From contig CACZMF010000011.1 in NCBI GenBank assembly GCA_902782225.1, forward strand, positions 3,127 to 67,126: 64,000 bases of DNA, given 5' to 3'. The notes beneath the pieces were generated by a model. That model saw only the letters and a program-made list of their open reading frames with translations. It did not search any database and was not told where the DNA came from. The DNA comes from an uncultured Bacteroidia bacterium (lineage in GTDB: Bacteria; Bacteroidota; Bacteroidia; Bacteroidales; UBA932). Shown piece by piece: positions 5-23,954 of the stretch. The stretch's first letter is position 1, and each line of letters starts with the position of its first letter. The position numbers and the translations under genes are program-made.

Positions 5-3000
5 ATGAATAAACATTACTTGTTCTTGCTGCTGACGCTCTTATTTTTCTATCAAGCTGAAGCGCAACAAATTCTTCGAGGTACTATTTCCGATTCCAGC
101 GGCGCTCCCCTTCCCGGGGCAGCTATTAAAGTAGCCGGAACTGACAAAGGGTTCATCACTGACGTAAACGGAGTTTATGAAATAAGCGGCATCCGCTTCC
201 CGGCCAGAATCGTAGTTTCATTCATCGGTTATTCGGATACCGAACTGGAATTGACAGGAAACGAGCCGGTCCCCTACAACATCGTGCTTGACGACTCAAA
301 GAATCTGCTCGACGAAGTGGTCGTCGTCGGTTTCGGCACGCAAAAACTCAGCACTCTTTCGGGCTCCGTTGGAGTGATAGACGGGGCAACCCTCAACCAG
401 CGTCCGGTAGTATCCGCTGCAAACGCCCTGCAGGGTGCCGATCCCTCCGTTTACATCACCACGAGCAACGGAAGTGCCAACAGTTCGGCATCAATCAACA
501 TCCGAGGTTCCCTCTCGGTCAACGGAGGCAGTCCCCTAGTGTTGATCGACGGGGTGGAAGGCAGCCTTTCCATGTTGAATCCGAACGACATAGAGTCGGT
601 TTCAATACTAAAGGACGCATCGACCTGCGCCATTTACGGTGCCAAGGCATCGGCAGGAGTGGTGCTCGTTACAACCAAACAAGGTTCCACCGGCAGTGCC
701 CGTATTTCCTATGGATTCCGTCAGGGATGGATTCAGCCGACTACCGACATGGACCTGATTACCACGGGCTACGACCATATCTCCATCATCAACTACTTCC
801 AACAGCACTCGTTCCACAGTTCCAGGCTGAACGAATACGACTACACAGTGGCAAACGGCGAATTGCTGAAACTTTTTGAGAGGCGCAACGATGTGGTTGA
901 GAATCCCGCACGTCCATGGGTAGAAGTGGGGGCTGACGGTTATTACCACTATTACGGCAACTTCGACTGGTTCAACTTCTTCTACAACACCAACCGCCCT
1001 GTCTCGGAGCACGATTTTTCCGTATCAGGAGGCAACGGCGGAATACGGTACTATGTCGGCGGACGCTACTACAACGAGACCGGATTGCTGAAGGGCAGCC
1101 TTAGCGATAAATACAGAAGTTACTCCATACGCAGCAAGGTTTCAGCCCAGGTGAACAAACACATCCGGTATATCAACAATCTCTCCTACGCAAAGAAGAA
1201 TTACGCTTGGCAAGGTAATTCCGATATGGAATCCACGTTTGAAAACCTATGGCGCTACGGCTCGCCCGCATTTTCGCCATACAATCCAGACGGTTCGCTT
1301 GTAAATTTCCCCATAGAACTCTCCGGCGCGGCAAAGACCAACATGATGAACAATTCCGCGACACAGGCTCTTGCGGGGACTAACCACAACAGCAAGGATA
1401 CCGGCCACTTGACACTTTCAAACAAGTTGGAAATCACGCCTTTGCGTGGTCTTACCATAAGCGGTCAGTATGACTTCCGCCGCATAGATACTTTCAACAC
1501 CTACCGTACAGGCAAATACTATTGGTCCAATCAACCCGGTATCATCAACGAGATGTCGGGCACCACAAATTCTTACAAAGAGGACCGCGACTGGCGGCAG
1601 GTGCATATCGGGACTCTCACCGTTCAGTATGAGAACAATTGGGGCGGCCACTACATGAAGGCCCTTGCCGGAGCTCAGTACGAGACATCGCGGACCTCCG
1701 ATTTTACGGTCAAAGGCTCGCCGGTCCTCGTCGAAGGATACGACTCTTTCGCCCTCATAGATCAAAGCGCAGATGAAAACGGATTCCCAAGGGCCTCCTA
1801 CTCCGTTTCAAGCGGCAATTCAGAATATGCAACGCTAGGCTTCTTCGGCCGGTTGAATTATGACTACAAAGGCATCTACATACTGGAGGCCAGCGCCCGC
1901 TACGACGGTACTTCCCGCTTCGGCGAGCGTCACCGCTGGGGCTTCTTCCCCTCCGGGTCAATTGCCTGGAAATTCAGCGAAGAGAAATTCTTCTCTCCTC
2001 TCAAAAAAATTGTCTCCAACGGAAAAATACGTTTCTCTGCAGGATCCCTCGGCAACCAGCAGGTTTCGAACTATTACTACATCGAGAGAATCTCCATAGA
2101 CAATACTCAGGACTATACCTTCGACAACCAGACCAAGTCGCGCTATGCGTCGATCTCGTCGCCTGTTTCCGGGAACCTCACCTGGGAGACCGTAAACACC
2201 TATGATGCAGGTCTGGATCTCTCATTCTTCGACAACAAGCTGAAATTCGTCGGAGACTACTACATCAGGGACACCAAAGACATGCTTACCGCTTCAGTTG
2301 CGCTCCCGGAAGTATTCGGAGCGACCGAGCCCAAGGAGAATTGTGCAGACCTCCGCACATACGGATGGGAGTTCTCGCTCGGCTGGCACGACGGTTTCAT
2401 GCTGGCCGGCAGCAGGTTCAACTATTCCGTATCGGGTTTCCTAGGCGACAGGCACACATATTTCACCAAGTATTACAATCCAACCGGCACACTTGACAGC
2501 CACTACGTGGGCGAGGAACTCGGCACCATATGGGGGTTCCGCTCTGGCGGCCTTTTCACCTCCGATGAAGAAGCTTGGGAATATACTTCTTCAGTGGACA
2601 GCCGCCAGTTCCAGCCGGGATACTATTATCCGGGCGGCGGCGTTTGCGTGGACGGAGAAGGCGCCAAGGCAGGAGACTTCAAGTTGCTTGACATAGGAGG
2701 CGGCCCGAACGGAGAGCCTGACGGAATCATCTCCAAAGGAAAAAACACTCTCGATGACCACGGAGACCTTGATGTATTAGGCACGACCCAACCGCACTTC
2801 AATTATTCTTTCCGACTCGACTTTGACTGGAAGGGATTCGACTTCTCCGCATTCTTCCAGGGCATAGGCCATAAGGACTGGTATCCCAAGGGCACATATG
2901 GAGGATATGCTTTCTGGGGCCCTTATTCTTCCACAAGCATAACGTTTATCCATAAGCGTTTTATGGACAATGTATGGTCGCCGGAGCATACCGACGCGTA

Positions 3001-3340
3001 TTTTCCGCGCCCGCGCGGCTATTCGGCATATACTTCCAACGATTACTATACGGGACTGGGATTCAGCAACGATTATTTTCTCCAAAACATAGGATACCTC
3101 AGGCTGAAGAACCTTACCCTCGGCTACACTCTTCCGTCTAAGCTTAGCAGGAAGATTGCCATCGACAAACTGCGTTTCTATGTCAGCGGAGAGAATTTGT
3201 TCTATCTCTCCCCTCTCAAGAAGCATACGCTCCTGATCGACCCTGAGTTGGCAAATGCTTCAGGCGTTGCGACAAGCAACACCGGAGTCGGATACTTATA
3301 CCCTCGCACGATATCAGTCGGAGCCAGCGTAACTTTCTAA
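5..3340 (+). CDS. SusC/RagA-family TonB-dependent outer-membrane transporter (PUL-1)
   Basis: 1111-aa ORF with signal peptide MNKHYLFLLLTLLFFYQAEA. Carboxypeptidase-regulatory-like N-domain (ILRGTISDSSGAPLPGAAIKVAG..DVNGVYEI). Plug motifs VVVVGFGTQK and SILKDASTCAIYGAKASAGVVLVTTKQG. Barrel C-terminus ends in F. A SusD-like gene starts 2 nt downstream. Confidence 0.95.
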   Translation: MNKHYLFLLLTLLFFYQAEAQQILRGTISDSSGAPLPGAAIKVAGTDKGFITDVNGVYEISGIRFPARIVVSFIGYSDTELELTGNEPVPYNIVLDDSKNLLDEVVVVGFGTQKLSTLSGSVGVIDGATLNQRPVVSAANALQGADPSVYITTSNGSANSSASINIRGSLSVNGGSPLVLIDGVEGSLSMLNPNDIESVSILKDASTCAIYGAKASAGVVLVTTKQGSTGSARISYGFRQGWIQPTTDMDLITTGYDHISIINYFQQHSFHSSRLNEYDYTVANGELLKLFERRNDVVENPARPWVEVGADGYYHYYGNFDWFNFFYNTNRPVSEHDFSVSGGNGGIRYYVGGRYYNETGLLKGSLSDKYRSYSIRSKVSAQVNKHIRYINNLSYAKKNYAWQGNSDMESTFENLWRYGSPAFSPYNPDGSLVNFPIELSGAAKTNMMNNSATQALAGTNHNSKDTGHLTLSNKLEITPLRGLTISGQYDFRRIDTFNTYRTGKYYWSNQPGIINEMSGTTNSYKEDRDWRQVHIGTLTVQYENNWGGHYMKALAGAQYETSRTSDFTVKGSPVLVEGYDSFALIDQSADENGFPRASYSVSSGNSEYATLGFFGRLNYDYKGIYILEASARYDGTSRFGERHRWGFFPSGSIAWKFSEEKFFSPLKKIVSNGKIRFSAGSLGNQQVSNYYYIERISIDNTQDYTFDNQTKSRYASISSPVSGNLTWETVNTYDAGLDLSFFDNKLKFVGDYYIRDTKDMLTASVALPEVFGATEPKENCADLRTYGWEFSLGWHDGFMLAGSRFNYSVSGFLGDRHTYFTKYYNPTGTLDSHYVGEELGTIWGFRSGGLFTSDEEAWEYTSSVDSRQFQPGYYYPGGGVCVDGEGAKAGDFKLLDIGGGPNGEPDGIISKGKNTLDDHGDLDVLGTTQPHFNYSFRLDFDWKGFDFSAFFQGIGHKDWYPKGTYGGYAFWGPYSSTSITFIHKRFMDNVWSPEHTDAYFPRPRGYSAYTSNDYYTGLGFSNDYFLQNIGYLRLKNLTLGYTLPSKLSRKIAIDKLRFYVSGENLFYLSPLKKHTLLIDPELANASGVATSNTGVGYLYPRTISVGASVTF

Positions 3341-3341
3341 T

Positions 3342-5216: not shown

Positions 5217-5233
5217 ACAAACAGAGACATATT

Positions 5234-8200
5234 ATGAATATCCACAAACTAATCATATCCCTTACGGTATTAACCGGCATCTCAGCCACGGGCTGCCTGA
5301 AGGAAGTTGATACGCAGAATCCCTATGTCCGCAACAAGGGTGAAGCATATATGACGGTCAGCACGGAACGGCTCGATTTTTCCGGTCGAGGCGGTGCGTT
5401 GTCTTTCACCGTGGAGACAAACTACGACGCCACATTGGAAGCCCCGGAATGGATTAGCCTGGCATCTGCCGAAGTACCCGGAGACGGTCGCACATACACT
5501 CTAACCGCCACTGCCTCAAGGAATAATGAACCTGGAGGAGCGGACAGGACAGGGGTCATAAACATCAAGTCCGGGTCGCTCTCCAAGTCAATTTCGGTAG
5601 CCCAGCCTTATTTCGAGCGCCCTGACATTCCCCAGAGCATATCCAATGCCGACGAACTTGTGTATTTCCTGGATACTTGCGCAGCCGTGCTTGAAGAAGG
5701 CGAGACCATTTCCTTCTCGAAGGATATCGACATGAAGGGCAAGACCTTTCAGCCAGCCGAGTATTTCAAGGGAGTCATCAACGGCAACGGATTCAGCATC
5801 AGGAACCTGTCAGCCTCCACTCCGCTTATCTTACGCAACGAAGGAGTGATAAACAATCTGGTTATAGATGCTTCCGGAGCTTTTGAAATCCAGCCCGAAG
5901 ACACCGAACAGTACTTCGGCGCCTTCGCGGGTCAGAATTTCGGGAAAGTCGAAGCCTGTGTAAACGAAGCCAGCTTTTTCGTCCGCGGCGCCAGAACCGC
6001 CAAACTCTATCTTGGAGGTATCGTCGGCTACCACAACCTGGAGTCATCCTTGCACGGATGCGTGAACAAAGGATCTTTCAACTACTCTCCCGACAGCGCA
6101 ACCGCCAATGCCTATATGGGCGGCATCGCCGGCTATAGCTACGGCTCCATCGACGCTTGCGAGAATTACGGGCCGTTCAACTGCACACCCATCGAAAACA
6201 GCGCGGTGTATTTTATCGGGGGCATCACAGCACGTCAGCAGAACAGTGTCCTGAGCAACTGTATCAACCATCGCGAAGCCCGCATCTCCACCAACAAAGT
6301 CAGCGGAAGCGGCAAATCATACATTGGCGGCATCGTAGGCTACGTCGAGGGCACCCCGGCAAGCTCCGGCAACCGGAATTACGCCGACCTCGAAATAAAT
6401 CTCAAGGCTGAGTCATACATCGGCGGCCTTCAAGGCTGGCAGGCCAAAGTCACCGAAGGCGACGCTGTGCTTTTCGAAAACAGCATCGTCAACTGCAACA
6501 TTACCGCGCAGACCAAGGCATCCGGCCAATATGGCAACAATCCGTGCAAATCTGCCGGCTTGGTAACCGGAAGGTTCAGTGGCCAGAGCGGTTACAGCAC
6601 CCTTCACTACGGCACCGCCGACAGCCCGATACGAGTCTCAGGATCAATTACCTGCCTGTCATCCAAAGTCAAGCAGATAGCCCAGCCAAAGGACTATCAA
6701 GCTCTGCTGGACGGTGACGGATCAAAGACAAGCGTCAACGGAGGCTCGATTCCGGAGGCCGACTACAATAACATTCTTTATGAGGTATGCGGTGACGGGC
6801 AGACCGGCGACCCCGAAGATCTGATCGTCAAGACCGACGGTGTAAGGCTCTCGATTCCAGCATCAGGAGGAGAGGCATCGTTCTCAGTGCGAGGCAATTA
6901 TCCGATGACCATATCCACCGAAGCTGAATGGCTGGAAGTTTCTCCCTCAATGGTCGAAGGCGATGGAGCATATCACGACATCAAAGTATCCGCTACAGCA
7001 AATGAAGGTGCATCCGGGCGCGAAGGCACCGTTCTGGTGACTATGCCAATGGGCTCCACCGAAGCCGTCACTATCGTTCAGGAGGGAGCAAATCTGCCCC
7101 CCGAGCCGGAGGACAGGACAAAAATAAAGAATGCTGCAGATTTTGAGCAATTCGTCAAAAACGGCAGCGATACGGACCTGTATCCTGCCGGGACCGTTGT
7201 CTCCCTTACAGACGATATCGACCTCAAAGATATAGAACTTCCTTCCATAGATGCTTTTGCCGCAACACTGGACGGACAGGGTCACTCTCTGAAGAATTGG
7301 GCGGCCAAGGCCCCCCTGGTGAATGTAAACACCGGAACTCTGAAGAATATTGTAATTGACCAGAGCTGCTCTATGGCTCTCTCGGAGAACATGGCGTTTT
7401 TTGCCAAAGAGAACGGCGGCACCATTACCGCCTGCACCAACTTGGCACCGCTCAATTGTTCCGCCAATCCGGGAGCATCGGGGCGCATAGCAGGCATCGC
7501 CGCCACAAATAAAGGCCTCATCCAGGGCTGCACAAACCGCGGCGACCTCAGCTTCTCCAGTCCCGAAGACGTAAACGCTATGTATCTGGCAGGAATCGCC
7601 GGTTCCTGCGGGACCGGCGCATCAATCGAAGACTGTGAAAACTACGGAAATATAACCTACCATGTCCCGGCCGGCGCCACCCAAACATACAAGCGCCTTG
7701 CCGGTATAACCGGCATGGCCGACGTATCCGGCATAAGGATTGCACGCTGCGTCAACCGTGGCGCGATTACGATGACCGTCTCGCCCGGAACCGCTATCAA
7801 AAATATCCGCAACGGAGGAATCGCCGGCGAGACCAAGAACGAGGTTGACATCAACGAATGCAAGAACTACGGCAACCTCAGCTGCGACTTTTCCGGCAGC
7901 GCCGTCTATCTTGGCGGCTTGGTCGGATATTTCAACACCATCAAGAGCAACTTCACGACCTTCGCCGGCTGCGTGACTGCCTGCAACATCAGCGGAGCAT
8001 ACGCGGCCACCTCTTCACTCTCGTCCAACCCGCTGGAGTGCTGCGGGCTCGTGTTCGGCAGCAGTGCATCCGCTTCTGGATACGTCCATACCTGCGGCAC
8101 CGAGTCAGCCCCCATAAAGGTTTCCGGCTCCCTTACCTGCTCAGACAATACCCTCACGCTGACAGAGAGCAACTTCCAGAATGGCCTCAACGGCAACAAA

Positions 8201-9112: not shown

Positions 9113-9138
9113 ACAATAACCACAAACACACACAAGCA

Positions 9139-11007
9139 ATGAACACAAGACGATTTCTATTAGCAATTGCGGCATTTACCGCCGCGATAATGTCATGTAA
9201 CAAGCCCGAACCGGAGCCCGAACCGGAACCGGAGCCGGGCAAAGATCCTGAAGCGACTTTCTCCATCGACAAGACTAGCGTATCTTTCGAAGCGAAAGGC
9301 GGAACCGCATCCGTGAGCATAACATCCAACACCGAATGGATGGCCGTAGGGCTTGACTGGCTCACCATAGAGCCGTCCAAGGGCAAAGGCAATGCAACCG
9401 TGACACTGACAGCAGCAGAAAACACCAAGACCTCCGAGAGGAAAGGAAAGATCACCTTCTCTTATTCGGGAAAAACCGAGGAAATAGCTGTAAATCAAAA
9501 AGGTGCAGAGAATTCAGAAGAGCCTCTTCCGTCTAGCGACCCACATTCTGTCGACAAGACATCCATAGTTTCCGGCCAGAGCGTCACCTTGAAATTCGAC
9601 ACTTCGGTATGGACTATGGCCAAGGGAATAAAATGGTCTTGGAAAGAGGGAGAGAAAGAAATAGTTAAAGAAGGGGCCGAAGTCACCACGCCGGTAGAAG
9701 TGGATTACCTGACCATAACCGACAATACCCCCGTAGATGTCCCGATCGCCGTCTCCGCCACCGTGAACGGGAAAGAAATGAACTGGGAGTTGAGTCTGAG
9801 CGTGAAACCTTATTTGCTCTATTACAACGACTGGGGAGTAACCCCTCAGGCTTTCCGCTATTCCGCCCCCGTCTTTTCGGTCGACAAATCCACTGTTTAC
9901 GCAGCTACCGACCGCAAGGGAAGCAAACTCTACGCGTTCGATACAGCAAGCGGCACTAAGAAATGGGAGTTCGATCCCGGAGCGGATAAGACCTGCTGCA
10001 CAACGCCCACCGTCAATCCGGTAAGCGGTGATATCTATTATGTCACCACCACTGCAAACGATATTTACGCCGTCAAAGCAGACGGAACCATGAAATGGAA
10101 ATACGAAGGGCTCGAATCGGTCAACAAGAACTCCAGTCCCGTCGTCTCCAAGGACGGTGCATCGGTCTTCTTCTCCGACAGCAAGGGCAATGTACACGCG
10201 GTCAACGCCCTCACGGGAGAAAAGATCTGGGGAGTCAAGCTGAACGCCACCGTACAGGGAATGATCCTCAACGGCAAAGAGCTTTTCTGCGCATGTGACG
10301 CCATCACCGAAGGGGCTGTCTTCCTGAACGCCGCCGACGGCAGCACTATCGCCGCGGTCGATCTTTACAAGAACAGCAACGACGCCGCTTCGCTCGTCGT
10401 TGATCCGGCAAAGAAAATTGCATACATTCCCTCGAAGGGCAGCAACCAGAGCGCCCCGACGGATCCTTCAGACTACAGTGGTCTCGACCTGACTTCCTGC
10501 CTGACAGCCATCGACCTTGCAGGGCATAAGATGATTTCATGCGGCGAAGTAGCGACTAACAGCTTCTGGGGAGGGGTCGTCCTTGCCAACGGCGACATAA
10601 TTATCGCAGACAAGGACGGTTATATCACCAGGCTCGAATCGTCTACTCTCCGGACAGTTTGGAAAAAAGGCTCCTGGAAGCGCAATTCCTACAATTATGG
10701 CCAACCTGTTATGGACACCGACGGCAACATATACCTTTCTGCCGGACACTATTCCTTCGACGGTGCGGGGCATACCATCAAAATCAACCCGGACGGAGAA
10801 GTGCTCGCAGACTGGGCCAACACAAAGGACCTTGAAGGTCCCATGGCAGGTACAGGACTCTGCAACGGATTGCTGTACATCCTCTGCAACGACACCCAGA
10901 ACAAGGTGCAGAAGCCTATCATGAGCAAATACGTCGGGAAAGACATTGCCACCTTCGGATGGCCGTGCCACGGCGGAAACCTTCAAGGAACCGGCTGCCT
11001 GCAATAG
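9139..11007 (+). CDS. Lipoprotein: BACON domain + PKD/Ig-like domain + PQQ-like beta-propeller repeats
   Basis: Signal MNTRRFLLAIAAFTAAIMSC followed by a (PE)n linker. BACON-like FSIDKTSVSFEAKGGTASVSITSNTEWMAVGLDWLTIEPSKGKGNATVTLTAAEN. PQQ-type blades: KLYAFDTASGTKKWEF, DIYAVKADGTMKWKY, NVHAVNALTGEKIWG. Paralog of 17693..19714. Confidence 0.8.
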   Translation: MNTRRFLLAIAAFTAAIMSCNKPEPEPEPEPEPGKDPEATFSIDKTSVSFEAKGGTASVSITSNTEWMAVGLDWLTIEPSKGKGNATVTLTAAENTKTSERKGKITFSYSGKTEEIAVNQKGAENSEEPLPSSDPHSVDKTSIVSGQSVTLKFDTSVWTMAKGIKWSWKEGEKEIVKEGAEVTTPVEVDYLTITDNTPVDVPIAVSATVNGKEMNWELSLSVKPYLLYYNDWGVTPQAFRYSAPVFSVDKSTVYAATDRKGSKLYAFDTASGTKKWEFDPGADKTCCTTPTVNPVSGDIYYVTTTANDIYAVKADGTMKWKYEGLESVNKNSSPVVSKDGASVFFSDSKGNVHAVNALTGEKIWGVKLNATVQGMILNGKELFCACDAITEGAVFLNAADGSTIAAVDLYKNSNDAASLVVDPAKKIAYIPSKGSNQSAPTDPSDYSGLDLTSCLTAIDLAGHKMISCGEVATNSFWGGVVLANGDIIIADKDGYITRLESSTLRTVWKKGSWKRNSYNYGQPVMDTDGNIYLSAGHYSFDGAGHTIKINPDGEVLADWANTKDLEGPMAGTGLCNGLLYILCNDTQNKVQKPIMSKYVGKDIATFGWPCHGGNLQGTGCLQ

Positions 11008-11016
11008 ACCGTGAAA

Positions 11017-12678
11017 ATGAAAAAGACATTCCTGCTGTTTGCAGCGTGCACAGCCATTATAATAAATGGCTGCACGCCAGTCGAAATACCCAACGACGAG
11101 GACGACGTACCTGCAATACCGGAAGGAATGAACCTTGTCGGCTCGGTTGTCGACGCTTCCGGGAAAGGTATCGAAGGAGTGGTGGTAACTGACGGATTCC
11201 AATGTACCGCCACTCAAGCCGACGGCGCCTATTACATGAAAGTGGACGAGTCCGCGGTCAAGTTCATCTATATCAGCACGCCGTCGGGATATGAGCCGCC
11301 GGCTTCCAACGGCCTGCCCGTGTTTTACATACCGTTCGCCAGGCTCGCAAAGTCGGAAGGGATATACAAGGCCGAGCCCTTCAAACTGACTGCGGTACAA
11401 AACCCGGACAGGGCTACGGTATTGTTTACCGCCGACCCTCAGCCCAGGGCAAGCACGGCAAAATACGACCAGTTCGCTTTCCATTCCCTGGACTGCTGCC
11501 AGGACCTCTACCGGGACTTGAAGGAAACCGGGGAGAGCATTTCGGGAAGAAGGGTCTTCGGGGTATGTCTCGGCGACATCGTCCATGAAAACATGGATCT
11601 TTATTCGGACTACCTTGCAGGGCTAAGTACACTGGGCTATCCCACCTACAATGTAATCGGCAACCATGACAATAATCCTTCGGCGGCAAATGACGAGTCT
11701 GCCGCCGAGGATTTCGAATCCCATTTCGGACCGAGAAACTATTCGTTCAATGTGGGCAATATCCACTTTGTAGTTCTTGACAATCTGATAATGAAAGACA
11801 AGAACGGACGCCTGACAGGGTACGATCAAGGACTTACCGACAGCATATGGGAATGGCTCCAGGCCGACTTGTCGTATGTACCGAAAACAGCGACCATTGC
11901 TACCTGCACCCATTCACCGATGTTCAAGTTACAGAGCGGTGAACGATCCGGGAAGCACAAGAGCGATTATGCCAACCTCCTCACCACTTACTCGAAGGTT
12001 CACGCTTGGGCCGGCCACACCCATGCTACCCACAATTTCGTCTATCCCGCCGGGCATCTGTTCGAAAAAGTGGAAGTCCACACCCTGGCCCGTTCTACCG
12101 GCGAACTGTGGACCAATGAATATCTGTCCTACGGAACTCCGCGCGGATATACCATCGCGGAAATCGAAGACGGGGAGTTCAAATCATGGCGTTTTCACCC
12201 GGTCAAGTACCAGACAGGCAAGTACCTTGGCGCCGAAAAGGCACCTTACGACTTCAGGGACTGGGATTATGACCAGTCAGGAGTCGCGGTAATGAAAAAC
12301 GGTGGCGCTGTACTTGACGAATCCTACCAGATGCATGTCTATCCCCCTGTAGGGACCTACGGCGATTCCAAGGTTTACGTTAACGTATTCCTCTGGGACA
12401 GCATGTGGAGCCGTCCGGTATTTACCCTGGACGGCGGGGGTCCCGTGGAAATGAAGCCGGTGGAGTCCACGTCCCGCCACGATTTCGCCGAAACGATGTT
12501 CAAGACCTTCTACAAGACATACAACTCCACACTTAAAGGAGATTCCAGCTACAAGGCGAGCAATACATCCAATCCGAACACCCTCTTCAGCACACCTGTT
12601 GACGCGCCTTCCGGTTCAGGAACAGTCAGCGTGACAGACCGGTTCGGTAATGTTTACACACAAAAGACCAGCTGGTAG
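11017..12678 (+). CDS. Exported calcineurin-like metallophosphoesterase with N- and C-terminal accessory domains
   Basis: Track start GTG 11011; ATG 11017 gives MKKTFLLFAACTAIIINGC (lipobox). Metallophosphoesterase motifs: FTADPQ.., CLGDIVHEN, VIGNHDNN, VVLDN, TCTHSP, WAGHTHATH. Confidence 0.85.
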   Translation: MKKTFLLFAACTAIIINGCTPVEIPNDEDDVPAIPEGMNLVGSVVDASGKGIEGVVVTDGFQCTATQADGAYYMKVDESAVKFIYISTPSGYEPPASNGLPVFYIPFARLAKSEGIYKAEPFKLTAVQNPDRATVLFTADPQPRASTAKYDQFAFHSLDCCQDLYRDLKETGESISGRRVFGVCLGDIVHENMDLYSDYLAGLSTLGYPTYNVIGNHDNNPSAANDESAAEDFESHFGPRNYSFNVGNIHFVVLDNLIMKDKNGRLTGYDQGLTDSIWEWLQADLSYVPKTATIATCTHSPMFKLQSGERSGKHKSDYANLLTTYSKVHAWAGHTHATHNFVYPAGHLFEKVEVHTLARSTGELWTNEYLSYGTPRGYTIAEIEDGEFKSWRFHPVKYQTGKYLGAEKAPYDFRDWDYDQSGVAVMKNGGAVLDESYQMHVYPPVGTYGDSKVYVNVFLWDSMWSRPVFTLDGGGPVEMKPVESTSRHDFAETMFKTFYKTYNSTLKGDSSYKASNTSNPNTLFSTPVDAPSGSGTVSVTDRFGNVYTQKTSW

Positions 12679-12739: not shown

Positions 12740-13102
12740 ATGAAAAAAATCCTAATGGCCACGGCCTTCCTTCTGACTGTCCTTTCTATGGCTCCATCTT
12801 GCCAGAGGCTAAGGCAGCCGGTAAAGGTTGAAAGCGTGGCTCTCTACACCAAACCGGGAGATCCGGTCAGCTCCGCTGCAGGCACCAAGGGAGTGACGAT
12901 CAGCGCGACAGGCGACTGGACTGTCTCTTCGAACGCAGACTGGATTTCCGTGTCCCCTTCTTCAGGATCCAGAGGGATCAATGAAGTTATTCTCAATTAC
13001 ACCGAGAATACCGGTAAGGAACTAAGGACCGGCAGCATAGTATTTACCGCCAAAGGCGGCTACAGCGAAATTTATATTCTAAAACAAAATCCTGCGATAT
13101 GA
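12740..13102 (+). CDS. Small BACON-domain lipoprotein (first gene of PUL-2)
   Basis: Track ORF 12650..13102 trimmed to ATG 12740 (MKKILMATAFLLTVLSMAPSC). BACON-like ISATGDWTVSSNADWISVSPSSGSRGINEVILNYTENTGKELRTGSIVFTAKGGYSEIYILKQ. 4-nt overlap with the following SusC-like gene. Confidence 0.8.
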   Translation: MKKILMATAFLLTVLSMAPSCQRLRQPVKVESVALYTKPGDPVSSAAGTKGVTISATGDWTVSSNADWISVSPSSGSRGINEVILNYTENTGKELRTGSIVFTAKGGYSEIYILKQNPAI

Positions 13103-17681: not shown

Positions 17682-17692
17682 CAGAAAACACA

Positions 17693-19714
17693 ATGAAAAG
17701 ATTTTTTACATATGCTGTTGGAGTCCTTCTGACACTTGTAGCGGTCTCTGCCTGCTGGAAAGAGCCGCAAATTCAGACTGGAAACGACCTTAAGCTCCGC
17801 CATCAGGTCACTGACCTGATGGCCGTGGCCGGCGACGAGGAAGTCCAGCTCAGCTGGAGCATTCCCGAAGGATGGAACCCCACTTCCTACCTGATAACCT
17901 ACCTGAACACCGAGAGCAAGCAGGAAGAGATTACCGTTGAAGGCGGCACCACTGCTTACACCGTAACAGGCCTTGTAAATGGCGCCAAATATACATTCGG
18001 CGTACAGGCCGTCTATGATAAGCTGCTCTCAGGTATCGTATACACGAAGGAGATGCAGCCCACCACCAGCCGCCTTCCCGTAGGCCAGTTGCTTGCCGAC
18101 GCCGAGAGCGGAAAGGTGACGCTCTATTGGGACAAGCCCTCAACGAGTGTTCTGGGTTACATCATCACCTGCACTCCCGACGGAGGCGAGACCAAGAGTA
18201 TCGAAATATCTGACGGTAACGCTACTTCCTACGTCCTGGAAGGCCTGACGGACGATGTCAACTACACTATCACGATAGTTGCCAAGTACGCCAAAGGCAA
18301 CTCCTCGGCGGCAAGCGTCAAGGCAATGCCAAGCCAGTCCATTCCATTTTTTGTCAAACGCGACAAGGTCTGCATCGGGCAGCCTGTAGAGCTCACTTTC
18401 AACCGTGAAGACTTCCCCGGCGCCACGGACGTCAAATGGATTTTCCCCGGAGACATAGTAGTTGAAGGCGACACTGCAAAGCAGGGCTTTGCGAGCGCCG
18501 GAGAGAAAACAGTCACTCTTTCCGCCAAAGTCAACGGAGTCGAGAAGAACTGGACCATAACCATCGTAGTGCGAGAGTACGCTGTCTATGACAACGATTT
18601 CGCATTCGACACAGGCCAGCTCTACAATGGGTTCAAGGGATCCGCGCCCATGTTCTCTCCGGACGGTAACACCATCTACGACCTGACTTTCAACAAAATC
18701 ACCAACTTGGTCGCATGGGATCTGCAGACCGGAGAAAAGAAATGGACCTACAGAGTAGATCACGGTTCCTACAACGGCCTCACGGTCAATCCTGTCACAG
18801 GTGACATTTACTTCGGCACCCAGACCGCAGGCGATTTCTTCGCCGTCACAGCTAACGGAGAACTGAAATGGCAGTTCACGGAAGCCGGCAGCATGCAGAG
18901 CGCCAGCCCTGCGGTAAGCAAAGACGGAAATACCGTGTATCTGATTGATGCCAAGGGAGCCACCTTTGCACTTGACGCAGCCGCCGGAGCCAAAAAATGG
19001 CAAGCTGAACTGGGAGGCAAGGGCGGCGGTCTGCTTGTCAACGGAAACGACCTTGTTGTTGCAGTCAACAGCACTGAAAAAACCATAGTCTGGCTCAACG
19101 CACTCACCGGTGAAGAAATCGTCAGTTACGCTCAGGCAGGAAAGGCCAGCGACATAAGCGGAGGCTTTGCCGTATCGCCCGACAAACGCTACGCCTATTA
19201 TGGACACGCCGAAGGCATGGTATCCAAAATAGACCTACAGGAAAGGAAGATAGTGGTTGACTGCAAGGTAGTATCAACTGCCGATAAACCGAACATCTGG
19301 GGAGTAGTCTCCTCACCTAACGGCGACATACTCGCCCCGAGCAAAGACGGCAACTGTTATCTACTTGACGGATCCACCCTTGAAATCAAGGCCACCCTTG
19401 AGTCCGGAAAAGGCGTGAACGCTTTCAATTACGCCAGGGCATGCTCCGATACTGAAGGCAATTTCTACATCACTTCAGGCCAAGTCCAGAACACGGTATG
19501 GATTCTCGGACCCGACCTTTCCGTGAAGGACCAGTTTGAGCTGGGAACGAAGAACGATAAGCAGATGGGCGGAAACAACTATCTGGACGGCATTCTGTAC
19601 TCCGCTTTCATCGGAGCCAAGAACGATAACGGCAAATTCATCGGCAAATACGTAGGCGGTGAAAGGTACGCGGCATATGGAATCGACATCTGCGGCAGCT
19701 GCTGCCTGAAATAG
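17693..19714 (+). CDS. Lipoprotein: two FN3 domains + PKD/Ig-like domain + PQQ-like beta-propeller repeats
   Basis: Signal ..LTLVAVSAC. FN3-like segments: VQLSWSIPEGWNPTSYLITY..YTVTGLVNGAKYTFGVQAVY and VTLYWDKPSTSVLGYIITC..YVLEGLTDDVNYTITIVAKY. Propeller blades: NLVAWDLQTGEKKWTY, DFFAVTANGELKWQF, ATFALDAAAGAKKWQ. Paralog of 9139..11007. Confidence 0.8.
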   Translation: MKRFFTYAVGVLLTLVAVSACWKEPQIQTGNDLKLRHQVTDLMAVAGDEEVQLSWSIPEGWNPTSYLITYLNTESKQEEITVEGGTTAYTVTGLVNGAKYTFGVQAVYDKLLSGIVYTKEMQPTTSRLPVGQLLADAESGKVTLYWDKPSTSVLGYIITCTPDGGETKSIEISDGNATSYVLEGLTDDVNYTITIVAKYAKGNSSAASVKAMPSQSIPFFVKRDKVCIGQPVELTFNREDFPGATDVKWIFPGDIVVEGDTAKQGFASAGEKTVTLSAKVNGVEKNWTITIVVREYAVYDNDFAFDTGQLYNGFKGSAPMFSPDGNTIYDLTFNKITNLVAWDLQTGEKKWTYRVDHGSYNGLTVNPVTGDIYFGTQTAGDFFAVTANGELKWQFTEAGSMQSASPAVSKDGNTVYLIDAKGATFALDAAAGAKKWQAELGGKGGGLLVNGNDLVVAVNSTEKTIVWLNALTGEEIVSYAQAGKASDISGGFAVSPDKRYAYYGHAEGMVSKIDLQERKIVVDCKVVSTADKPNIWGVVSSPNGDILAPSKDGNCYLLDGSTLEIKATLESGKGVNAFNYARACSDTEGNFYITSGQVQNTVWILGPDLSVKDQFELGTKNDKQMGGNNYLDGILYSAFIGAKNDNGKFIGKYVGGERYAAYGIDICGSCCLK

Positions 19715-19729
19715 CATTGTAGAACATAG

Positions 19730-21283
19730 ATGCATCTTAACATTATAATAACCTTAATTCTGCTAGCCTCGCTCTCCTGTACGCCAAAAAGTACAGAGAG
19801 AGCCGAGGCGATGCGTTTGAGTGCAAGCGTACTTGAATATGCACATTCCAGCCTTGTGCTCACCCAGCGCTATTGGGAGAAAGGCGACAAGTTTGACGCA
19901 ATATTGACTTCTGACGGATCGCGCACCGTAGTCGAGCCCGCCTCGGACGGCGGCTCGCCCTATGCCGGGTGCTTTGTTGAAGCACCTGCAGGAAAAGCAA
20001 CCGGAGTTATTGGAGTTTATCCTTCCGGATCAGGTGCAGAATGGCAAAACGGACAGATTTGCTTCGATATCCCGGAGCAGCAGGACGGCAAGCCGGTGAC
20101 ATTGTCGGCAGGTTATGTTGAGGGTTCCCCCGGCGTTTACACCCCATATTCGCTCGAGATGGCGCCTATGTACAGTCTTGTCATGGTATCTCTGGCGCAT
20201 ATGCCATATATGGTCAAGGCATTGACGCTCAGAGCCAGCGACGGCTCAATGCTCAGCGGCCGCTGCACTCTGGACCCATTGGACGGGACCCGCTTGGCCT
20301 CGCGGCCTTCGGTGCATGTCTCGTTCCCCGAGCCACTCGACTGCCGGAGCGCCCAGGCAGTTGTGCCGGTGATGATACTGCCCGATCCGTCCGGAATGTC
20401 ATTCAACGCCTTTCTTGAGGACATAAGCGGCCGGAGCATTGTCATCGAAGACGTCGTAGACTTTTCGAAAGAAATGAACAGGCCTTATACGATAGGAACA
20501 TCCCTCGCAATCAACCCTAAGCAGGATCTCTCCAATATCCGGAGGATAAAAGACGCCGGAATAGAGTGGATTGAAGTAACCTGCAATTCTTTCCAGAGAA
20601 ACAAACCTGAGGAGGAATGGGAGCGGGGTGCAGAAAATATACGCAGCATTATCGAAAGCCTTGGCCTCAACGTGTGGTCCTGCCATCTTCCTTTCAGCAA
20701 GACCCTTGACATCTCTTTGACCGACCCCGAAGCGAGAAGGGAAAGCGTAGAAATACAAAAGCGGATGATCCGCATGTGCGGCGAAAAATTTCATCCCAAA
20801 AGACTTGTGCTGCACCCCAGCAGCGAGCCAATTGCCGATTCGGAGCGCAAAGCCCGGCTTGACTGCGCCAGGGAATCAATAAAAGAGCTTCTGCCCCTGG
20901 CAAAGGAAATCGGAGCCGTACTCTGTATAGAAAACCTCCCGCGTACATGCCTGGGACGAGTCACAGATGAGCTGAAATACATCCTTGAGCCTTTCCCCGA
21001 ATTGATGGTCTGCTTCGACACGAACCATCTTCTCATTGAAAGTCACGAAAAGTTCTTCCATGAACTGGGAGACCGGATCGGGACTATACATGTATCCGAC
21101 TATGACCGCATAGACGAGCGCCACGACCTCCCGGGCAATGGGGTAATTGACTGGCCGGCGTTCCACTACATGTTACGCCAGTGCGGTTATGACGGTATTT
21201 TCATGTACGAAGTAAAGTCCTCTAAAGGCACTCCTGCCGATTTGGTACAAGCATATAAAAACACTATCTTTACCGAACCGTGA
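19730..21283 (+). CDS. Exported lipoprotein: N-terminal ~250-aa domain fused to a xylose-isomerase-like TIM barrel (AP-endonuclease-2 / sugar phosphate isomerase-epimerase family)
   Basis: Signal MHLNIIITLILLASLSC. C-terminal half: GIEWIEVTCNSF, WSCHLPF, RLVLHPS, LCIENLP, CFDTNHL, IHVSDYD. This spacing is typical of the metal-binding TIM-barrel family. Confidence 0.7.
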   Translation: MHLNIIITLILLASLSCTPKSTERAEAMRLSASVLEYAHSSLVLTQRYWEKGDKFDAILTSDGSRTVVEPASDGGSPYAGCFVEAPAGKATGVIGVYPSGSGAEWQNGQICFDIPEQQDGKPVTLSAGYVEGSPGVYTPYSLEMAPMYSLVMVSLAHMPYMVKALTLRASDGSMLSGRCTLDPLDGTRLASRPSVHVSFPEPLDCRSAQAVVPVMILPDPSGMSFNAFLEDISGRSIVIEDVVDFSKEMNRPYTIGTSLAINPKQDLSNIRRIKDAGIEWIEVTCNSFQRNKPEEEWERGAENIRSIIESLGLNVWSCHLPFSKTLDISLTDPEARRESVEIQKRMIRMCGEKFHPKRLVLHPSSEPIADSERKARLDCARESIKELLPLAKEIGAVLCIENLPRTCLGRVTDELKYILEPFPELMVCFDTNHLLIESHEKFFHELGDRIGTIHVSDYDRIDERHDLPGNGVIDWPAFHYMLRQCGYDGIFMYEVKSSKGTPADLVQAYKNTIFTEP

Positions 21284-22956
21284 AAAAGTTCAACCTACCT
21301 ATCGTTTTATTGGCCGCAGCTTCAGTTCTGTCCTTTACATCCTGCAATGGTAAAGAACAGAGCGGCCCGGCTCAGGTCACCAAGACCAATATAACCTTCC
21401 TTAGCGGCCGATATGCCGACGGGCGGCTTAAGCCGGTGGTATTACAGGAATCAGACGAAGTGGCGCTTTTGCATGCCGCATCCGGAGAAAAGAGCGTGAG
21501 CACCCCGCTCACCCCTGGCAGCAATTCGTCCCTCTTCCTTTTTGATCTGAAGAAGCCCAAGAAGGGTGATCAGCTTGCTGCCTGGTTCCCTGCAAATTCC
21601 GGTTTTACCGTTGACGCTTCCAGCGCCAGCTTTGAATTCCCCGCCCGGCAGGACGGCTCTGAATTTCCCAATGTGTTTTTCGGCTCGACCAAGAACACGG
21701 GCGACAATTATGCCGGGAATTCAATCAAACTCAATCCTGTGTGCGCACTTATCCTCGCCAAGGTTTCTAAAGGAGGATACTCTGTAACCCGTGCTGTTTT
21801 GAAAGCAAACGGCGGGGAAAACATAGCGGGAACCGTGACGATCAATTTGGAAAGCGGCCAATTCAGCTGCACACAGCCGTCAATAACCATGGAGCCCCCT
21901 CAGCAGATCGACTGTTCGGCGGGTAACGGGATCATCCCAATATTTGTTCCTCCGGTGGAGCTTAGCAAGGGTTTCAGCATCGAATTCACGCTATCCACCG
22001 GGAAGGTTATAACATATAGCAACGAAGAGTCGCTAAAACTCAGCCCCGGCTCGCTTGTGGATACCGACCCTCTGAGCGCCAACCGCTCGCTTATTGCTTG
22101 CGGAAGCAATAAGGTCTATGTCTTCGACGAAGCCCTTGCGAAGAAAAACGGGCGTTACAACAATGCCCTCACCTGGAGTTGGGATGCCAAGGCTGCAGCC
22201 GGCACGGTAGGCATGTCTGCAAGCAGGATGGACCATATCGATGATGCCAAGCCGGTGGCGGACGGCAAGAAGTTCCTGGTGACCAGTTCGTACGGTTGGG
22301 CACTCCTGCTCAACAAGGATACCAAGACGGTTGAATGGTCGTCAAATGGCACCACAAACGCTCATTCAGCCGAGCTGCTGCCCTCAGAACGCATTGTAGT
22401 TGCCTGCTCGGACGGTGGCGACGCCGTCAAACTGTTCAGTTCATCATCCTCTGCCGAGCTGGCCAGTTATCCTCTTCAGTCTGCCCACGGAGTGGTCTGG
22501 AGCGAGAAGCACCAGCGTTTGTTTGCAATTGGAGGTACATCTCTGCAAATCTATTCCCTAAAGAATTGGGATAGTGCCAGCCCCTCGCTTTCACTTGAAA
22601 GCACCGTTAACACAAAATCGTTCGTCACAGGCCTTCACGATATGACCCTTGCGGATGAAAATACCCTGATTATCGGAGGAAACAAGGCTGCGCTTTACGA
22701 CATTCCGTCCAAGTCCTTAAAGCAGTTAGGGCACTTCAACAGCTACCAGGGCGTGAAGTCCGTCAACTACAATCCCGATACAGGTGAAGCTTATTATACC
22801 TACGCCTGGAAAGGGCATTCTGAAGGAGATTACGACTGGTCAAGCCACAAAGTGCGCTACACCGACGATATCTTCGCCAACGACGGCGGTGTGGACAAGA
22901 GCACTATTGAGGTCGCGGATATCAATATGTACAAGGTCCGGGTGCTTAACTGGTAA
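21280..22956 (+). CDS. Lipoprotein with N-terminal fimbrillin-like module and C-terminal DUF6528-like putative beta-propeller
   Basis: GTG start in a GTGA overlap with the upstream stop. MKKFNLPIVLLAAASVLSFTSC lipobox. C-terminal half (LIACGSNKVYVFD.., TWSWDAK.., TNAHSAELLPSERIVVACSDGG, HGVVWSEKHQRLFAIGG) resembles the DUF6528 family as I remember it. Confidence 0.55.
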   Translation: MKKFNLPIVLLAAASVLSFTSCNGKEQSGPAQVTKTNITFLSGRYADGRLKPVVLQESDEVALLHAASGEKSVSTPLTPGSNSSLFLFDLKKPKKGDQLAAWFPANSGFTVDASSASFEFPARQDGSEFPNVFFGSTKNTGDNYAGNSIKLNPVCALILAKVSKGGYSVTRAVLKANGGENIAGTVTINLESGQFSCTQPSITMEPPQQIDCSAGNGIIPIFVPPVELSKGFSIEFTLSTGKVITYSNEESLKLSPGSLVDTDPLSANRSLIACGSNKVYVFDEALAKKNGRYNNALTWSWDAKAAAGTVGMSASRMDHIDDAKPVADGKKFLVTSSYGWALLLNKDTKTVEWSSNGTTNAHSAELLPSERIVVACSDGGDAVKLFSSSSSAELASYPLQSAHGVVWSEKHQRLFAIGGTSLQIYSLKNWDSASPSLSLESTVNTKSFVTGLHDMTLADENTLIIGGNKAALYDIPSKSLKQLGHFNSYQGVKSVNYNPDTGEAYYTYAWKGHSEGDYDWSSHKVRYTDDIFANDGGVDKSTIEVADINMYKVRVLNW

Positions 22957-22993
22957 ATCATCTTAGCCAATAAGGATATTGTCCCTTTTTTAT

Positions 22994-23001
22994 TATTTTT
23001 G
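22994..23001 (+). promoter_or_regulatory. Bacteroidetes -7 promoter box TAttTTTG
   Basis: Exact TAnnTTTG match 18 nt upstream of ATG 23019. It overlaps the track's GTG start at 23001, which argues against that start. Confidence 0.5.
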
Positions 23002-23018
23002 TGGCAGCTAATGACCAT

Positions 23019-23954
23019 ATGATGAAAAAGTACTTTCTTTTAGTTTTCCTTGCGCTTGCTGCCCTGATTGTGTCCTGTGGTAAGACTCCCGTCTCTGATC
23101 CCGTCGAAAAAGAAGATGAAGAGACCGCCACGCCTTCCACTCCCGCCACTCCGTCCGAGCCCAAGGACTATACGATAAAGGTAATATCATACAATATCCG
23201 CGTCCCGAGCAACGAGACGAACCCGGACAACAACTGGCCGGTGCGCAAGCCGGGCACGCCCGCAATGCTGCTGGCCCAGAAGCCCACGGTTTTCGGCCTT
23301 CAGGAAGCGGTGACGGAGCAAATCAACTACATAGTCGAAAATGTCCCCGGCTACAGCTATTATGGTGTCGGCCGCGACAACGGCAAGCCAATCCCGGGAG
23401 CTTCCGGAGAGATAATGGCTATCTTCTGGGACAACAAGCAGGTGGAGGCCGTGGACTGGGGCACTTTCTGGCTTTCCGAGACGCCAGACAGGGTGTCTCT
23501 GGGCTGGGATGCCGCCTGTCGCCGCACGGCCACCTGGGGCATATTCCTGCACAAGGAGTCAGGGCGCAAGTTCTTTTATGTCAACACGCACCTCGACCAC
23601 AAGGGCGCCACTGCCCGCAAGGAGGGCCTTAAGCTGATTGTCAGCAAGATAGCCGAACTTAACACGGAGAAGCTCCCGGTCATCCTGACCGGAGATTTCA
23701 ACGTGAAGCCCACCGACGCGAGCGTGGAAGTGTTACGCGGCACCCTCCAGGACGCCAGAGTCGTTGCCCCCGTCACCGACACGGACAATACCTACAATGC
23801 CTGGACGGCCAAGGGCAAGAGCATAATCGACTACATCTGGTTCAGCGGCTTCGACGGCATCTTGTATTACCATACCCTGCGCGATGCCTACGGCGGCGTG
23901 TCCCTGATTTCAGACCATTACCCTGTCAGCGCGGGCCTGTTGCTGAGAGGCTGA
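23019..23954 (+). CDS. Exported endonuclease/exonuclease/phosphatase (EEP) family protein
   Basis: MMKKYFLLVFLALAALIVSC lipobox. EEP motifs: IKVISYNIRV, VFGLQEA, NTHLDHKG, LTGDFNV, IDYIW, LISDHYPV. Confidence 0.85.
   Translation: MMKKYFLLVFLALAALIVSCGKTPVSDPVEKEDEETATPSTPATPSEPKDYTIKVISYNIRVPSNETNPDNNWPVRKPGTPAMLLAQKPTVFGLQEAVTEQINYIVENVPGYSYYGVGRDNGKPIPGASGEIMAIFWDNKQVEAVDWGTFWLSETPDRVSLGWDAACRRTATWGIFLHKESGRKFFYVNTHLDHKGATARKEGLKLIVSKIAELNTEKLPVILTGDFNVKPTDASVEVLRGTLQDARVVAPVTDTDNTYNAWTAKGKSIIDYIWFSGFDGILYYHTLRDAYGGVSLISDHYPVSAGLLLRG

Follow-up and report, generated by a model that had tools for sequence, protein, structure and literature searches.

Two fused SusC/SusD loci without recognisable glycoside hydrolases in an uncultured rumen Bacteroidales bacterium: a possible system for phosphodiester-linked glycopolymers

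Introduction

Polysaccharide utilization loci (PULs) are usually read through their carbohydrate-active enzymes (CAZymes), so that loci devoid of CAZymes are routinely left unassigned. The closest described systems are found in plant-associated Flavobacterium, where the PUS loci combine SusCD pairs (PusCD) with phosphomonoesterases, phosphodiesterases and inner-membrane organophosphate transporters and have no CAZymes (Lidbury et al., ISME J 2021, PMC8115612). These loci were defined by their induction under depletion of inorganic phosphate (Pi) and include beta-helix-like lipoproteins of unclear role (PMC8115612). A PUL-encoded phosphatase, BT3783, is known from the yeast alpha-mannan PUL of Bacteroides thetaiotaomicron, where its substrate is a phosphorylated high-mannose glycan (Cuskin et al., Nature 2015, PMC4978465), the mannan PULs being otherwise dominated by GH38, GH92 and endo-alpha-1,6-mannanases with the phosphatase as an accessory (PMC4978465). 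At the enzyme level, CbiR is an established phosphodiesterase clade of the AP_endonuc_2 superfamily (PMC7733943). Here we analyse a stretch of 64,000 nucleotides (hereafter the window; contig CACZMF010000011.1 of assembly GCA_902782225.1) from an uncultured rumen Bacteroidales lineage, whose positions 5-23954 hold two adjacent SusC/SusD loci, PUL-1 (genes g1-g5) and PUL-2 (genes g6-g12).

On balance, we favour the view that these are two fused loci specialised for a phosphodiester-linked anionic glycopolymer, the most plausible one being a teichoic-acid-like polymer of glycerol phosphate (GroP) or sugar phosphate made by other microbes. Three lines of evidence carry this view: the conserved metal ligands of an exported TIM barrel (g10), the homology of g12 to a known glycan phosphatase, and the phosphate-ester chemistry of the genes that accompany related loci in other Bacteroidales.

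Gene content of the two loci

Positions 5-23954 contain 12 co-directional open reading frames (ORFs), all on the + strand (Table 1), which an ORF check placed at the same coordinates as a first-pass annotation of this DNA. After correction of the starts of g3, g5, g6 and g12, the junctions across the array range from -4 (an overlap) to +64 bases, as tight as had been described. The first-pass annotation also held all products to be exported or lipoproteins, and export signals are indeed present on 12 out of 12, either a signal peptide (the SusC-like g1 and g7) or a lipobox ending in Cys (the others). There are two adjacent susC-like/susD-like pairs with strong Pfam matches, g1/g2 in PUL-1 and g7/g8 in PUL-2, and Pfam confirms almost item by item the domain list drawn up before (SusC/SusD pairs, BACON, propellers, DUF6528-like and EEP). 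A linked glycoside hydrolase (GH) or polysaccharide lyase (PL) is the usual hallmark of a PUL. None was found here: Pfam matched no GH or PL family among the 12 proteins, in keeping with the lack of such motifs already reported, and none came up when the folds of g3 and g11 were searched. Nor did Pfam, PDB sequence or fold searches place any propeller or unknown-domain protein in a known GH or PL family.

The array is not a product of chance: its gene order is found again, with 99% identity, in independent contigs from metagenomes and in rumen metagenome-assembled genomes (MAGs), as well as in about 40 further genomes of Bacteroidales with protein identities of 35-65%. The g11 protein of the MAGs RUG13810, RUG12515 and RGIG9677 (yak omasum) shows 99% identity, with a nucleotide identity of about 99% over the shared stretch.

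The TIM barrel of g10 and the phosphoesterases

The TIM barrel of g10 matches AP_endonuc_2 (PF01261) with 125.6 bits, well above the cutoff of 31.1. It had been stated that the three catalytic families of the two loci all typically hydrolyse phosphate esters; this overstates the case for AP_endonuc_2, which comprises mostly sugar isomerases and epimerases, but g10 itself keeps the metal-ligand set of endonuclease IV (Endo IV). Nine His, Asp or Glu residues are invariant in the g10 family (H319, H362, E401, D430, H433, H454, E463, H465, and E494). Seven of these (H362, E401, D430, H433, H454, E463, and H465) align, by hhalign and by hidden Markov model, with H109, E145, D179, H182, H216, D229, and H231 of Escherichia coli endonuclease IV (Nfo, sequence taken from NC_000913). 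We take the Zn ligands of the trinuclear metal site of Nfo to be H69, H109, E145, D179, H182, H216, D229, H231, and E261 (Hosfield et al. 1999). The remaining two of the nine ligand sites, H69 and E261, are fitted by g10 H319 and E494 by position only.

The nearest solved structures of g10 in a single-sequence search are D-tagatose 3-epimerases, while a profile search points to the uncharacterised MJ1311 (3wqo, 1.3e-19). In alignments, D-tagatose epimerases have no His at the positions of H319 and H362 and show a gap opposite E463-R-H465, and three of the four positions absent from the epimerases (H362, E463, and H465) align with the Nfo ligands H109, D229, and H231. Among NCBIfam models the best match of g10 is the phosphodiesterase CbiR (2.3e-15). 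An exact-sequence lookup of the 517-aa protein returned nothing; in the database the protein (P0001) begins at a later start codon. From these comparisons of sequence we conclude that g10 is a putative metallo-phosphodiesterase working like those of the Endo IV/CbiR type, and a member of neither named family.

By its sequence, g12 is a close homologue of the glycan phosphatase BT3783 (PDB 4c1r, 'mannosyl-6-phosphatase', E 2.7e-39; apo form 3mpr, 1.5e-39). The EEP motifs are intact in alignments (SYN, QE, HLDH, GDFN, and a C-terminal SDH); a loss of the catalytic His, suspected from an 'IDYIW' motif, was rejected after the true C-terminal SDH motif was found. The NCBIfam match of g12 to exonuclease III (xth) is weak (0.0069). 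The right end of PUL-2 is strain-variable: in two 99%-identical MAG contigs (L015 and L017) homology to the window ends at 22960, just past the g11 stop, and g12 is missing, while two other near-identical contigs retain it. This variability had been missed by the first-pass annotation, as had the N-terminal domain shared by g10 and g11 (see below).

The calcineurin-like metallophosphoesterase g5 contains the motifs GD188, GNHD217, H301, and GHTH335, with D-P-Q rather than D-x-H as motif I. Its NCBIfam matches, to cyclic-nucleotide phosphodiesterases, are weak, and PDB sequence searches of g5 and g3 gave no match.

Related loci in other genomes

Species-representative genomes (one genome per species) were scanned with a g11 profile, which gave 79 loci, and 60 Bacteroidales loci were compared by tblastn with the window proteins; the synteny census relies on our own ORF and tblastn labelling, and near-identical loci were kept. 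SusC, SusD, and the fn3/propeller gene stand upstream of DUF6528 in 41 of the 46 loci having enough upstream DNA. A small BACON lipoprotein of the g6 type, usually the first gene, is present in 31 of 40 related loci, and g7 is 60-77% identical in related loci.

These related loci provide our strongest evidence. Among the 40 loci with downstream DNA we found a glycerophosphodiester phosphodiesterase (GDPD) in 24, a major facilitator superfamily (MFS) transporter in 23, the TIM barrel in 11, a phosphodiester glycosidase (NAGPA) in two, and CotH in one. The MFS proteins belong to the organophosphate:phosphate antiporter (OPA) family (PgtP/GlpT/UhpC, 2e-67 to 3e-60), and the GDPDs match the glycerophosphodiester phosphodiesterase models NF006989 (9.5e-18) and NF008354 (5.9e-7). 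Lipoprotein signals were detected on the GDPD, NAGPA, and CotH proteins of these relatives. In one locus (L002) NAGPA is flanked by the propeller and the TIM barrel; in another (L023), where no TIM barrel was detected, it stands between the fn3/propeller gene and DUF6528. The CotH lipoprotein (atypical kinase fold) adjoins the TIM barrel or is fused to it in a single 877-aa protein (L012 10001-12634; L009 13278-15131). NCBIfam gave no match for the NAGPA and CotH proteins, and an exported CotH has no obvious role within a PUL. Relatives also hold a purple-acid-phosphatase-like enzyme together with EEP, and in some cases cytoplasmic genes for a lyxose/mannose isomerase, a PfkB kinase, and a class II aldolase. 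The rhamnosidases GH78 and GH106 stand inside two related loci, which fits a sugar-decorated phospho-polymer.

The PUL-1 family has a core of a SusR-like regulator, SusC, SusD, and the giant protein (g3 type). In one relative (L096) the giant is followed by a histidine-phosphatase-like gene (faint match), an MFS protein with 65% identity to the OPA transporter, and then a GDPD. PUL-1 relatives carry after the GLUG giant a lipoprotein of about 530-580 aa (L006 13369-14967, 532 aa; L094 14517-16184), duplicated in L096 (14792-16468 and 17867-19600) and absent from the window; neither Pfam nor NCBIfam matched it, and it is a candidate for the missing enzyme of the PUL-1 family.

Nearly all variable accessory genes in both families therefore have to do with phosphate esters, which would be hard to explain unless the substrates are phosphodiester-linked. 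The association with GDPD and OPA, together with the occasional rhamnosidases and NAGPA, points to polymers of glycerol phosphate or of sugar-1-phosphate.

Relatives occur in gut Alistipes, Muribaculaceae, Cryptobacteroides, and rumen lineages. Cultured Alistipes strains are among the carriers of PUL-2-type loci (A. montrealensis kh20, L027; Alistipes timonensis DSM 25383, L031; and Alistipes sp. i18-0019-D1, L033), which makes the idea directly testable. The g11 profile also matched loci of Sphingomonas and Rhizobium (L074-L093). Sphingomonas DUF6528 proteins are propeller-only, of about 295 aa, with a signal peptide, and adjoin a TonB-dependent receptor, with an ECF (extracytoplasmic function) sigma/FecR-like pair or a ROK-family gene nearby, so that the link between DUF6528 and TonB-dependent uptake crosses phyla.

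Other proteins of PUL-1 and PUL-2

Transport genes apart, g11 is the best conserved gene of the PUL-2 family. It has in common with g10 an N-terminal domain of about 225 aa (E 7e-16), for which Pfam gave no match at a permissive threshold. His, Lys and Arg predominate among its invariant residues (H362, H403, H453, K493, N496, K552, and R554), with D321, D322, and R526 near-invariant. The model of g11 (pLDDT 91) retrieved only generic WD40/YVTN propellers in a fold search, and the sole match of a PDB sequence search was a chance WD40 match. NCBIfam gave no match for g11 or g6.

The description of g3 as a BACON-GLUGx2-SGNH-like giant turned out to be essentially right. The family consensus shows an internally duplicated GLUG-type module, and the AlphaFold model (pLDDT 83) has two beta-helices with BACON between them, followed by a C-terminal alpha/beta domain of moderate pLDDT; the second GLUG region is thus recognised by duplication and model. 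Top fold matches are the GLUG domain 3n6z of a Bacteroides ovatus 'putative IgA1 protease' (9e-6) and IgA1 protease structures (about 1e-3). The C-terminal domain is considered putatively SGNH-like from motif blocks with S, G, N, and H (ANS, GG, GDNN, and DSYH) conserved in six sequences and from a weak fold match to CE2 esterases (E about 3e-3), Pfam giving no match to it even at a permissive threshold; in one relative (L094) it is encoded by a separate BACON+SGNH gene, 80% identical. NCBIfam gave no match for g3.

The propellers of g4 and g9, 31% identical to each other, had been labelled PQQ propellers. They are PQQ_2 propellers, BamB-like and not quinoprotein dehydrogenases: the models that they match best are those of BamB-like PQQ_2 and 'empty quinoprotein' type, and their PQQ (PF01011) scores (22.2 bits for g4 and 16.6 bits for g9) remain below the cutoff of 26.7. 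PQQ-dependent oxidation by either protein was rejected on these grounds. PDB sequence matches of g9 are only to fibronectin, BamB, and repeat propellers of the 'cell surface protein' kind. Given the sub-cutoff PQQ scores, these non-enzymatic propeller matches and the SusE/F position of g9, g4 and g9 are probably surface binding proteins on BACON or fn3 stalks.

Regulation and origin of the block

No substrate-sensing regulator was found inside positions 5-23954. A SusR-like gene (TPR_SusR + SusR_C) lies 205 bp upstream of g1 in a 99%-identical contig (L005), beyond the window, and PUL-1 is probably under such a regulator just upstream. PUL-2 relatives often have an ECF sigma/FecR pair. PUL-2 has probably lost this sigma/anti-sigma pair and would be co-transcribed with PUL-1 under the SusR-like regulator, since no such pair is present and a gap of 61 bases follows PUL-1. 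A terminator scan found no intergenic terminator within the array. Counts of sigma-70 promoters and terminators were close to the shuffled expectation, in a scan that does not cover Bacteroidota promoters, and Rfam at the gathering threshold gave no riboswitch and no other RNA in the window.

The G+C content of the PUL-1/PUL-2 block is 0.51-0.55 (about 0.52 overall), compared to about 0.61 in most of the remaining window; it rises to 0.60-0.64 directly after ~24000. This step at the block edge suggests, from base composition, that the block was acquired horizontally. Neither a tRNA gene nor an integrase was seen where the low-GC block ends. The right edge (23955-24350) is intergenic and rich in repeats, with a 23-nt tandem repeat (x3.6) at 23966-24045 and a 32-nt perfect hairpin, GACGGGACTGTGGYGGYGCTGAGAGTCCCGTC, in three copies (24171, 24244, and 24311), the chance expectation being none for either. 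Two independent metagenome contigs terminate in this repeat-rich stretch, at about 24280-24300.

Remainder of the window

Three further NAGPA genes are present in the window, two of them within a third PUL (PUL-3) with a G+C of about 0.60, in which no GH family was detected; its SusC and SusD are more closely paralogous to g1 and g2 than any others (Table 1). A gene with DUF6577 and a nucleotidyltransferase domain (Polbeta/NTP_transf_2), at 44809-45708 on the - strand, falls in a low-GC patch (0.506 at 44001-46000) and may be a small mobile or toxin-antitoxin-like insert.

Table 1. Positions, strands and supporting matches (E-values) of the features of PUL-1, PUL-2 and the remainder of the window.
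Feature	Position	Strand	Matches and remarks
g1, SusC-like TonB-dependent transporter, 1111 aa	5..3340	+	CarboxypepD_reg; Plug 3.5e-17; TonB_dep_Rec_b-barrel 5.1e-16; signal peptide
g2, SusD-like lipoprotein, 624 aa	3342..5216	+	SusD_RagB 2e-42; SusD-like_3 2.3e-14; lipobox
g3, giant surface lipoprotein, 1292 aa	5234..9112	+	BACON 2.1e-15; Glug 3.5e-5 (above Pfam cutoff); start corrected
g3, BACON domains	approx. 5432-5605, 6911-7084	+	
g3, GLUG beta-helix 1	approx. 5642-6679	+	
g3, GLUG-like beta-helix 2	approx. 7127-8164	+	Internal duplication, model
g3, putative SGNH-like esterase domain	approx. 8261-9109	+	
g4, BACON + BamB-like (PQQ_2) beta-propeller lipoprotein	9139..11007	+	PQQ_2 2.3e-16; BACON 2.9e-11
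g5, calcineurin-like metallophosphoesterase lipoprotein	11017..12678	+	MetallophosN 1.7e-22; MetallophosC 1.1e-12; Metallophos 5.8e-9 (scanned alone); start corrected
g6, small BACON lipoprotein	12740..13102	+	BACON 8.1e-12; conserved first gene of PUL-2 family; start corrected
g7, SusC-like transporter, 1059 aa	13099..16278	+	Plug 1.1e-19; CarbopepD_reg_2
g8, SusD-like lipoprotein, 467 aa	16278..17681	+	SusD_RagB 5.6e-31; SusD-like_3 3.2e-23
g9, fn3 x2 + BamB-like (PQQ_2) propeller lipoprotein	17693..19714	+	fn3 8.2e-19; PQQ_2 2.1e-12; SusE/F position
g10, lipoprotein, 517 aa, N-terminal beta domain (residues about 30-250) + TIM barrel (about 20489-21283)	19730..21283	+	AP_endonuc_2 3.6e-36
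g11, lipoprotein, N-terminal beta domain + DUF6528 beta-propeller (about 22075-22956)	21280..22956	+	DUF6528 1.4e-9
g12, EEP-family lipoprotein	23019..23954	+	Exo_endo_phos (PF03372) 2.3e-11; start corrected
Stand-alone NAGPA, 332 aa	24945-25943	-	1.7e-33; convergent with g12, ~1 kb downstream of PUL-2, high-GC flank
PUL-3	46928-61559		
PUL-3 SusR-like regulator	46928-48643	-	TPR + DUF6377/SusR_C 1.7e-58
PUL-3 SusC	48702-52007		39.6% identical to g1
PUL-3 SusD	52008-53822		38.3% identical to g2
PUL-3 BT_3987-like_N lipoprotein	53835-55598		
PUL-3 unknown protein, 654 aa	55610-57574		
PUL-3 NAGPA phosphodiester glycosidase	57578-58630		7.9e-26
PUL-3 NAGPA phosphodiester glycosidase, 974 aa	58635-61559		1.7e-19

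Discussion

A phosphorylated or phosphodiester-containing polymer had been proposed as a substrate in preference to a neutral polysaccharide, and this is supported by the ligand set of g10, by the homology of g12 to BT3783, and by the GDPD, OPA, NAGPA, and CotH genes of relatives. Among the candidates named at that stage, a GroP or sugar-phosphate polymer of the teichoic-acid type is now the most favoured and nucleic acid the least. Wall teichoic acids, lipoteichoic acids or the phospho-polysaccharides of Gram-positive bacteria would all, by hypothesis, fit such a substrate. The polymer would be captured at the surface by the BACON/GLUG giant g3 and the BamB-like propellers g4 (BACON) and g9 (fn3), and the SGNH-like domain of g3 would then remove ester substituents. 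Backbone or side-chain phosphodiesters could be cut by g10, perhaps together with g11, which carries the same N-terminal module, the fragments being imported through the SusCD pairs, and the residual phosphate would be removed by the metallophosphoesterase g5 and the BT3783-like g12. In most relatives the final step would instead be the release of an organophosphate by the lipoprotein GDPD and its import by an antiporter of the GlpT/UhpT family. The order of these steps and the location of the enzymes are proposals, and the beta-helices of g3, like g11, may have a catalytic role.

Several points weigh against this interpretation. The hhalign probability between g10 and Nfo is only 52%, with two of the nine ligand positions matched by position only; g10 scores below the curated cutoffs of both CbiR (NF041277, 56.8 vs 105 bits) and nfo (TIGR00587, 22.8 vs 129.65); and endonuclease IV is not among its PDB sequence matches. 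DUF6528, the most conserved candidate enzyme, has no assignable chemistry; it may be a glycanase or a lyase, or may serve for binding. The first metal motif of g5 is non-canonical, and g12 is not essential to the locus, since near-identical strains lack it. GDPD and the OPA transporter are absent from the window's own loci, and only the GDPD/OPA association and the ecological abundance of teichoic acid point to this polymer in particular. Finally, the functional assignments for both loci come from homology and synteny.

One alternative is the scavenging of Pi, as in the PUS/PusCD loci of Flavobacterium, by which organophosphates, whether small or polymeric, would be imported under Pi limitation mainly for their phosphate and not for carbon. 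The gene content does fit the PusCD description, with SusCD, phosphoesterases, organophosphate transporters, beta-helix-like lipoproteins and no CAZymes (PMC8115612). We nevertheless think it unlikely, as the regulators are of substrate-sensing types (SusR-like upstream of PUL-1, ECF sigma/FecR in PUL-2 relatives) and no PhoBR was seen. Besides, OPA antiporters exchange organophosphate for Pi, which suits the acquisition of carbon, and the cytoplasmic sugar catabolism genes of some relatives (lyxose/mannose isomerase, PfkB kinase, and class II aldolase) also argue against it. The rumen and the gut are, moreover, generally rich in phosphate.

Another possibility is that of an ordinary glycan PUL whose glycanase or lyase has gone unrecognised, hidden in the GLUG helices of g3 or in the DUF6528 or BamB-like propellers, with the phosphoesterases only trimming minor phosphates in the manner of BT3783 in the mannan PUL. 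Beta-helix and beta-propeller folds house many GH and PL families, and minimal PUL-1 relatives carry just the giant and a conserved unknown protein of about 555 aa. DUF6528, for which no chemistry is assigned, is more conserved than the TIM barrel (found in 11 of 40 loci) and stands in Sphingomonas beside a TonB-dependent receptor and a ROK-family gene, and GH78 and GH106 do occur in two relatives. Still, an explanation of this sort has few chances in our opinion: Pfam, PDB sequence and fold searches gave no GH or PL similarity, by fold g3 matches best a GLUG domain, not a catalytic one, of IgA1-protease-like proteins, and the variable accessory genes are nearly all related to phosphate esters (GDPD, OPA, NAGPA, CotH, EEP, and metallophosphoesterases).

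The use of extracellular DNA or RNA, with g10, g12 and g5 as nucleases or nucleotidases, appears improbable. Nucleases exist in all three superfamilies, g10 keeps the Nfo ligand set, and NCBIfam weakly matches g5 with cyclic-nucleotide phosphodiesterases and g12 with exonuclease III. What g12 closely resembles, however, is a sugar phosphatase, its xth match being marginal, and g10 falls below the cutoff of the nfo model. Some 60 related loci showed no nucleosidase, nucleotidase or nucleoside transporter and contain instead GDPD, the OPA transporter, NAGPA, rhamnosidases, and sugar catabolism genes. The capture and remodelling of corrinoids (cobamides), to which the top NCBIfam match of g10 (CbiR) and the propeller lipoproteins accompanying the TonB-dependent transporters, reminiscent of the B12-binding propeller BtuG, might lead, is hardly credible, given that the CbiR score is about half of the family cutoff, that Rfam gave no cobalamin riboswitch or other match in the window, that neither the window nor the related loci examined contained cobamide salvage genes, and that the transporters are SusC/SusD pairs whose partners are GDPD, OPA, and NAGPA.

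We thus return to a phosphodiester-linked anionic glycopolymer as the favoured substrate. A broader idea, which we put forward very tentatively and which may well prove wrong, is that a dedicated SusCD system, widespread among the Bacteroidales of gut and rumen (Alistipes, Muribaculaceae, Cryptobacteroides, and rumen lineages), allows them to forage on the teichoic acids and related phosphodiester-linked cell-wall glycopolymers of neighbouring Gram-positive bacteria. In this system an exported endonuclease IV-type metallo-phosphodiesterase and a catalytic DUF6528 propeller would depolymerise the substrate without CAZymes and OPA transporters would import the intact organophosphate. Many species-representative genomes from Bacteroidales that abound in the gut and rumen carry the family, which is apparently built on phosphodiester chemistry. 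If the substrate were teichoic acid or similar, this would be a route by which Bacteroidales recycle Gram-positive cell walls, a large pool of carbon and phosphorus for which no uptake system is known in this phylum, and would provide first functions for DUF6528, exported Endo IV-like TIM barrels, PUL-linked NAGPA and CotH, and the GLUG/BACON giants.

Comparison with known systems

Literature searches returned nothing relevant on DUF6528, PUL-linked phosphodiester glycosidase, the use of teichoic acid by SusCD systems or PULs, or MJ1311. The PUS loci share with the loci described here the combination of SusCD and phosphoesterases without CAZymes, represented in the window by g5, g10, and g12. 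Their protein families differ, an Endo IV-like TIM barrel, DUF6528, a GLUG giant and NAGPA all being absent from them, and whereas our loci come from the rumen and gut and are associated with SusR-like or ECF/anti-sigma regulators, PUS loci belong to the rhizosphere. The mannan PULs likewise encode an EEP-family lipoprotein phosphatase, BT3783 there and its homologue g12 here; in our case, however, there is no GH, and phosphoesterases are the sole recognisable hydrolases besides the SGNH-like domain.

GlpQ-type GDPDs of Bacillus and Staphylococcus are teichoic-acid hydrolases. The linkage of GDPD and glycerol-3-phosphate-type uptake in most PUL-2 relatives would fit an exo-cleavage of poly(glycerol phosphate), although there is no GDPD in the window and the GDPDs of relatives are homologous to GlpQ at the family level only. 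The g10 protein has in common with Nfo and CbiR the PF01261 TIM barrel, with seven Nfo ligand positions conserved, and differs from both in being exported as a lipoprotein, in its additional N-terminal beta domain, in its place within a SusCD locus and in its scores below both family cutoffs. The helices of g3 match known GLUG proteins (the N-domain of streptococcal IgA1 protease and BACOVA_03286, 3N6Z) and contain Pfam Glug motifs, but g3 has no peptidase domain and unites GLUG, BACON, and a putative SGNH-like esterase domain within a PUL. Overall, the kind of system is not new, since phosphoesterase-centred SusCD loci (in Flavobacterium) and a PUL-encoded EEP glycan phosphatase are already known, while the enzyme set is distinct, with its exported Endo IV-like TIM barrel, its DUF6528 propeller, its GLUG/BACON giant, and variable NAGPA, CotH, and GDPD.

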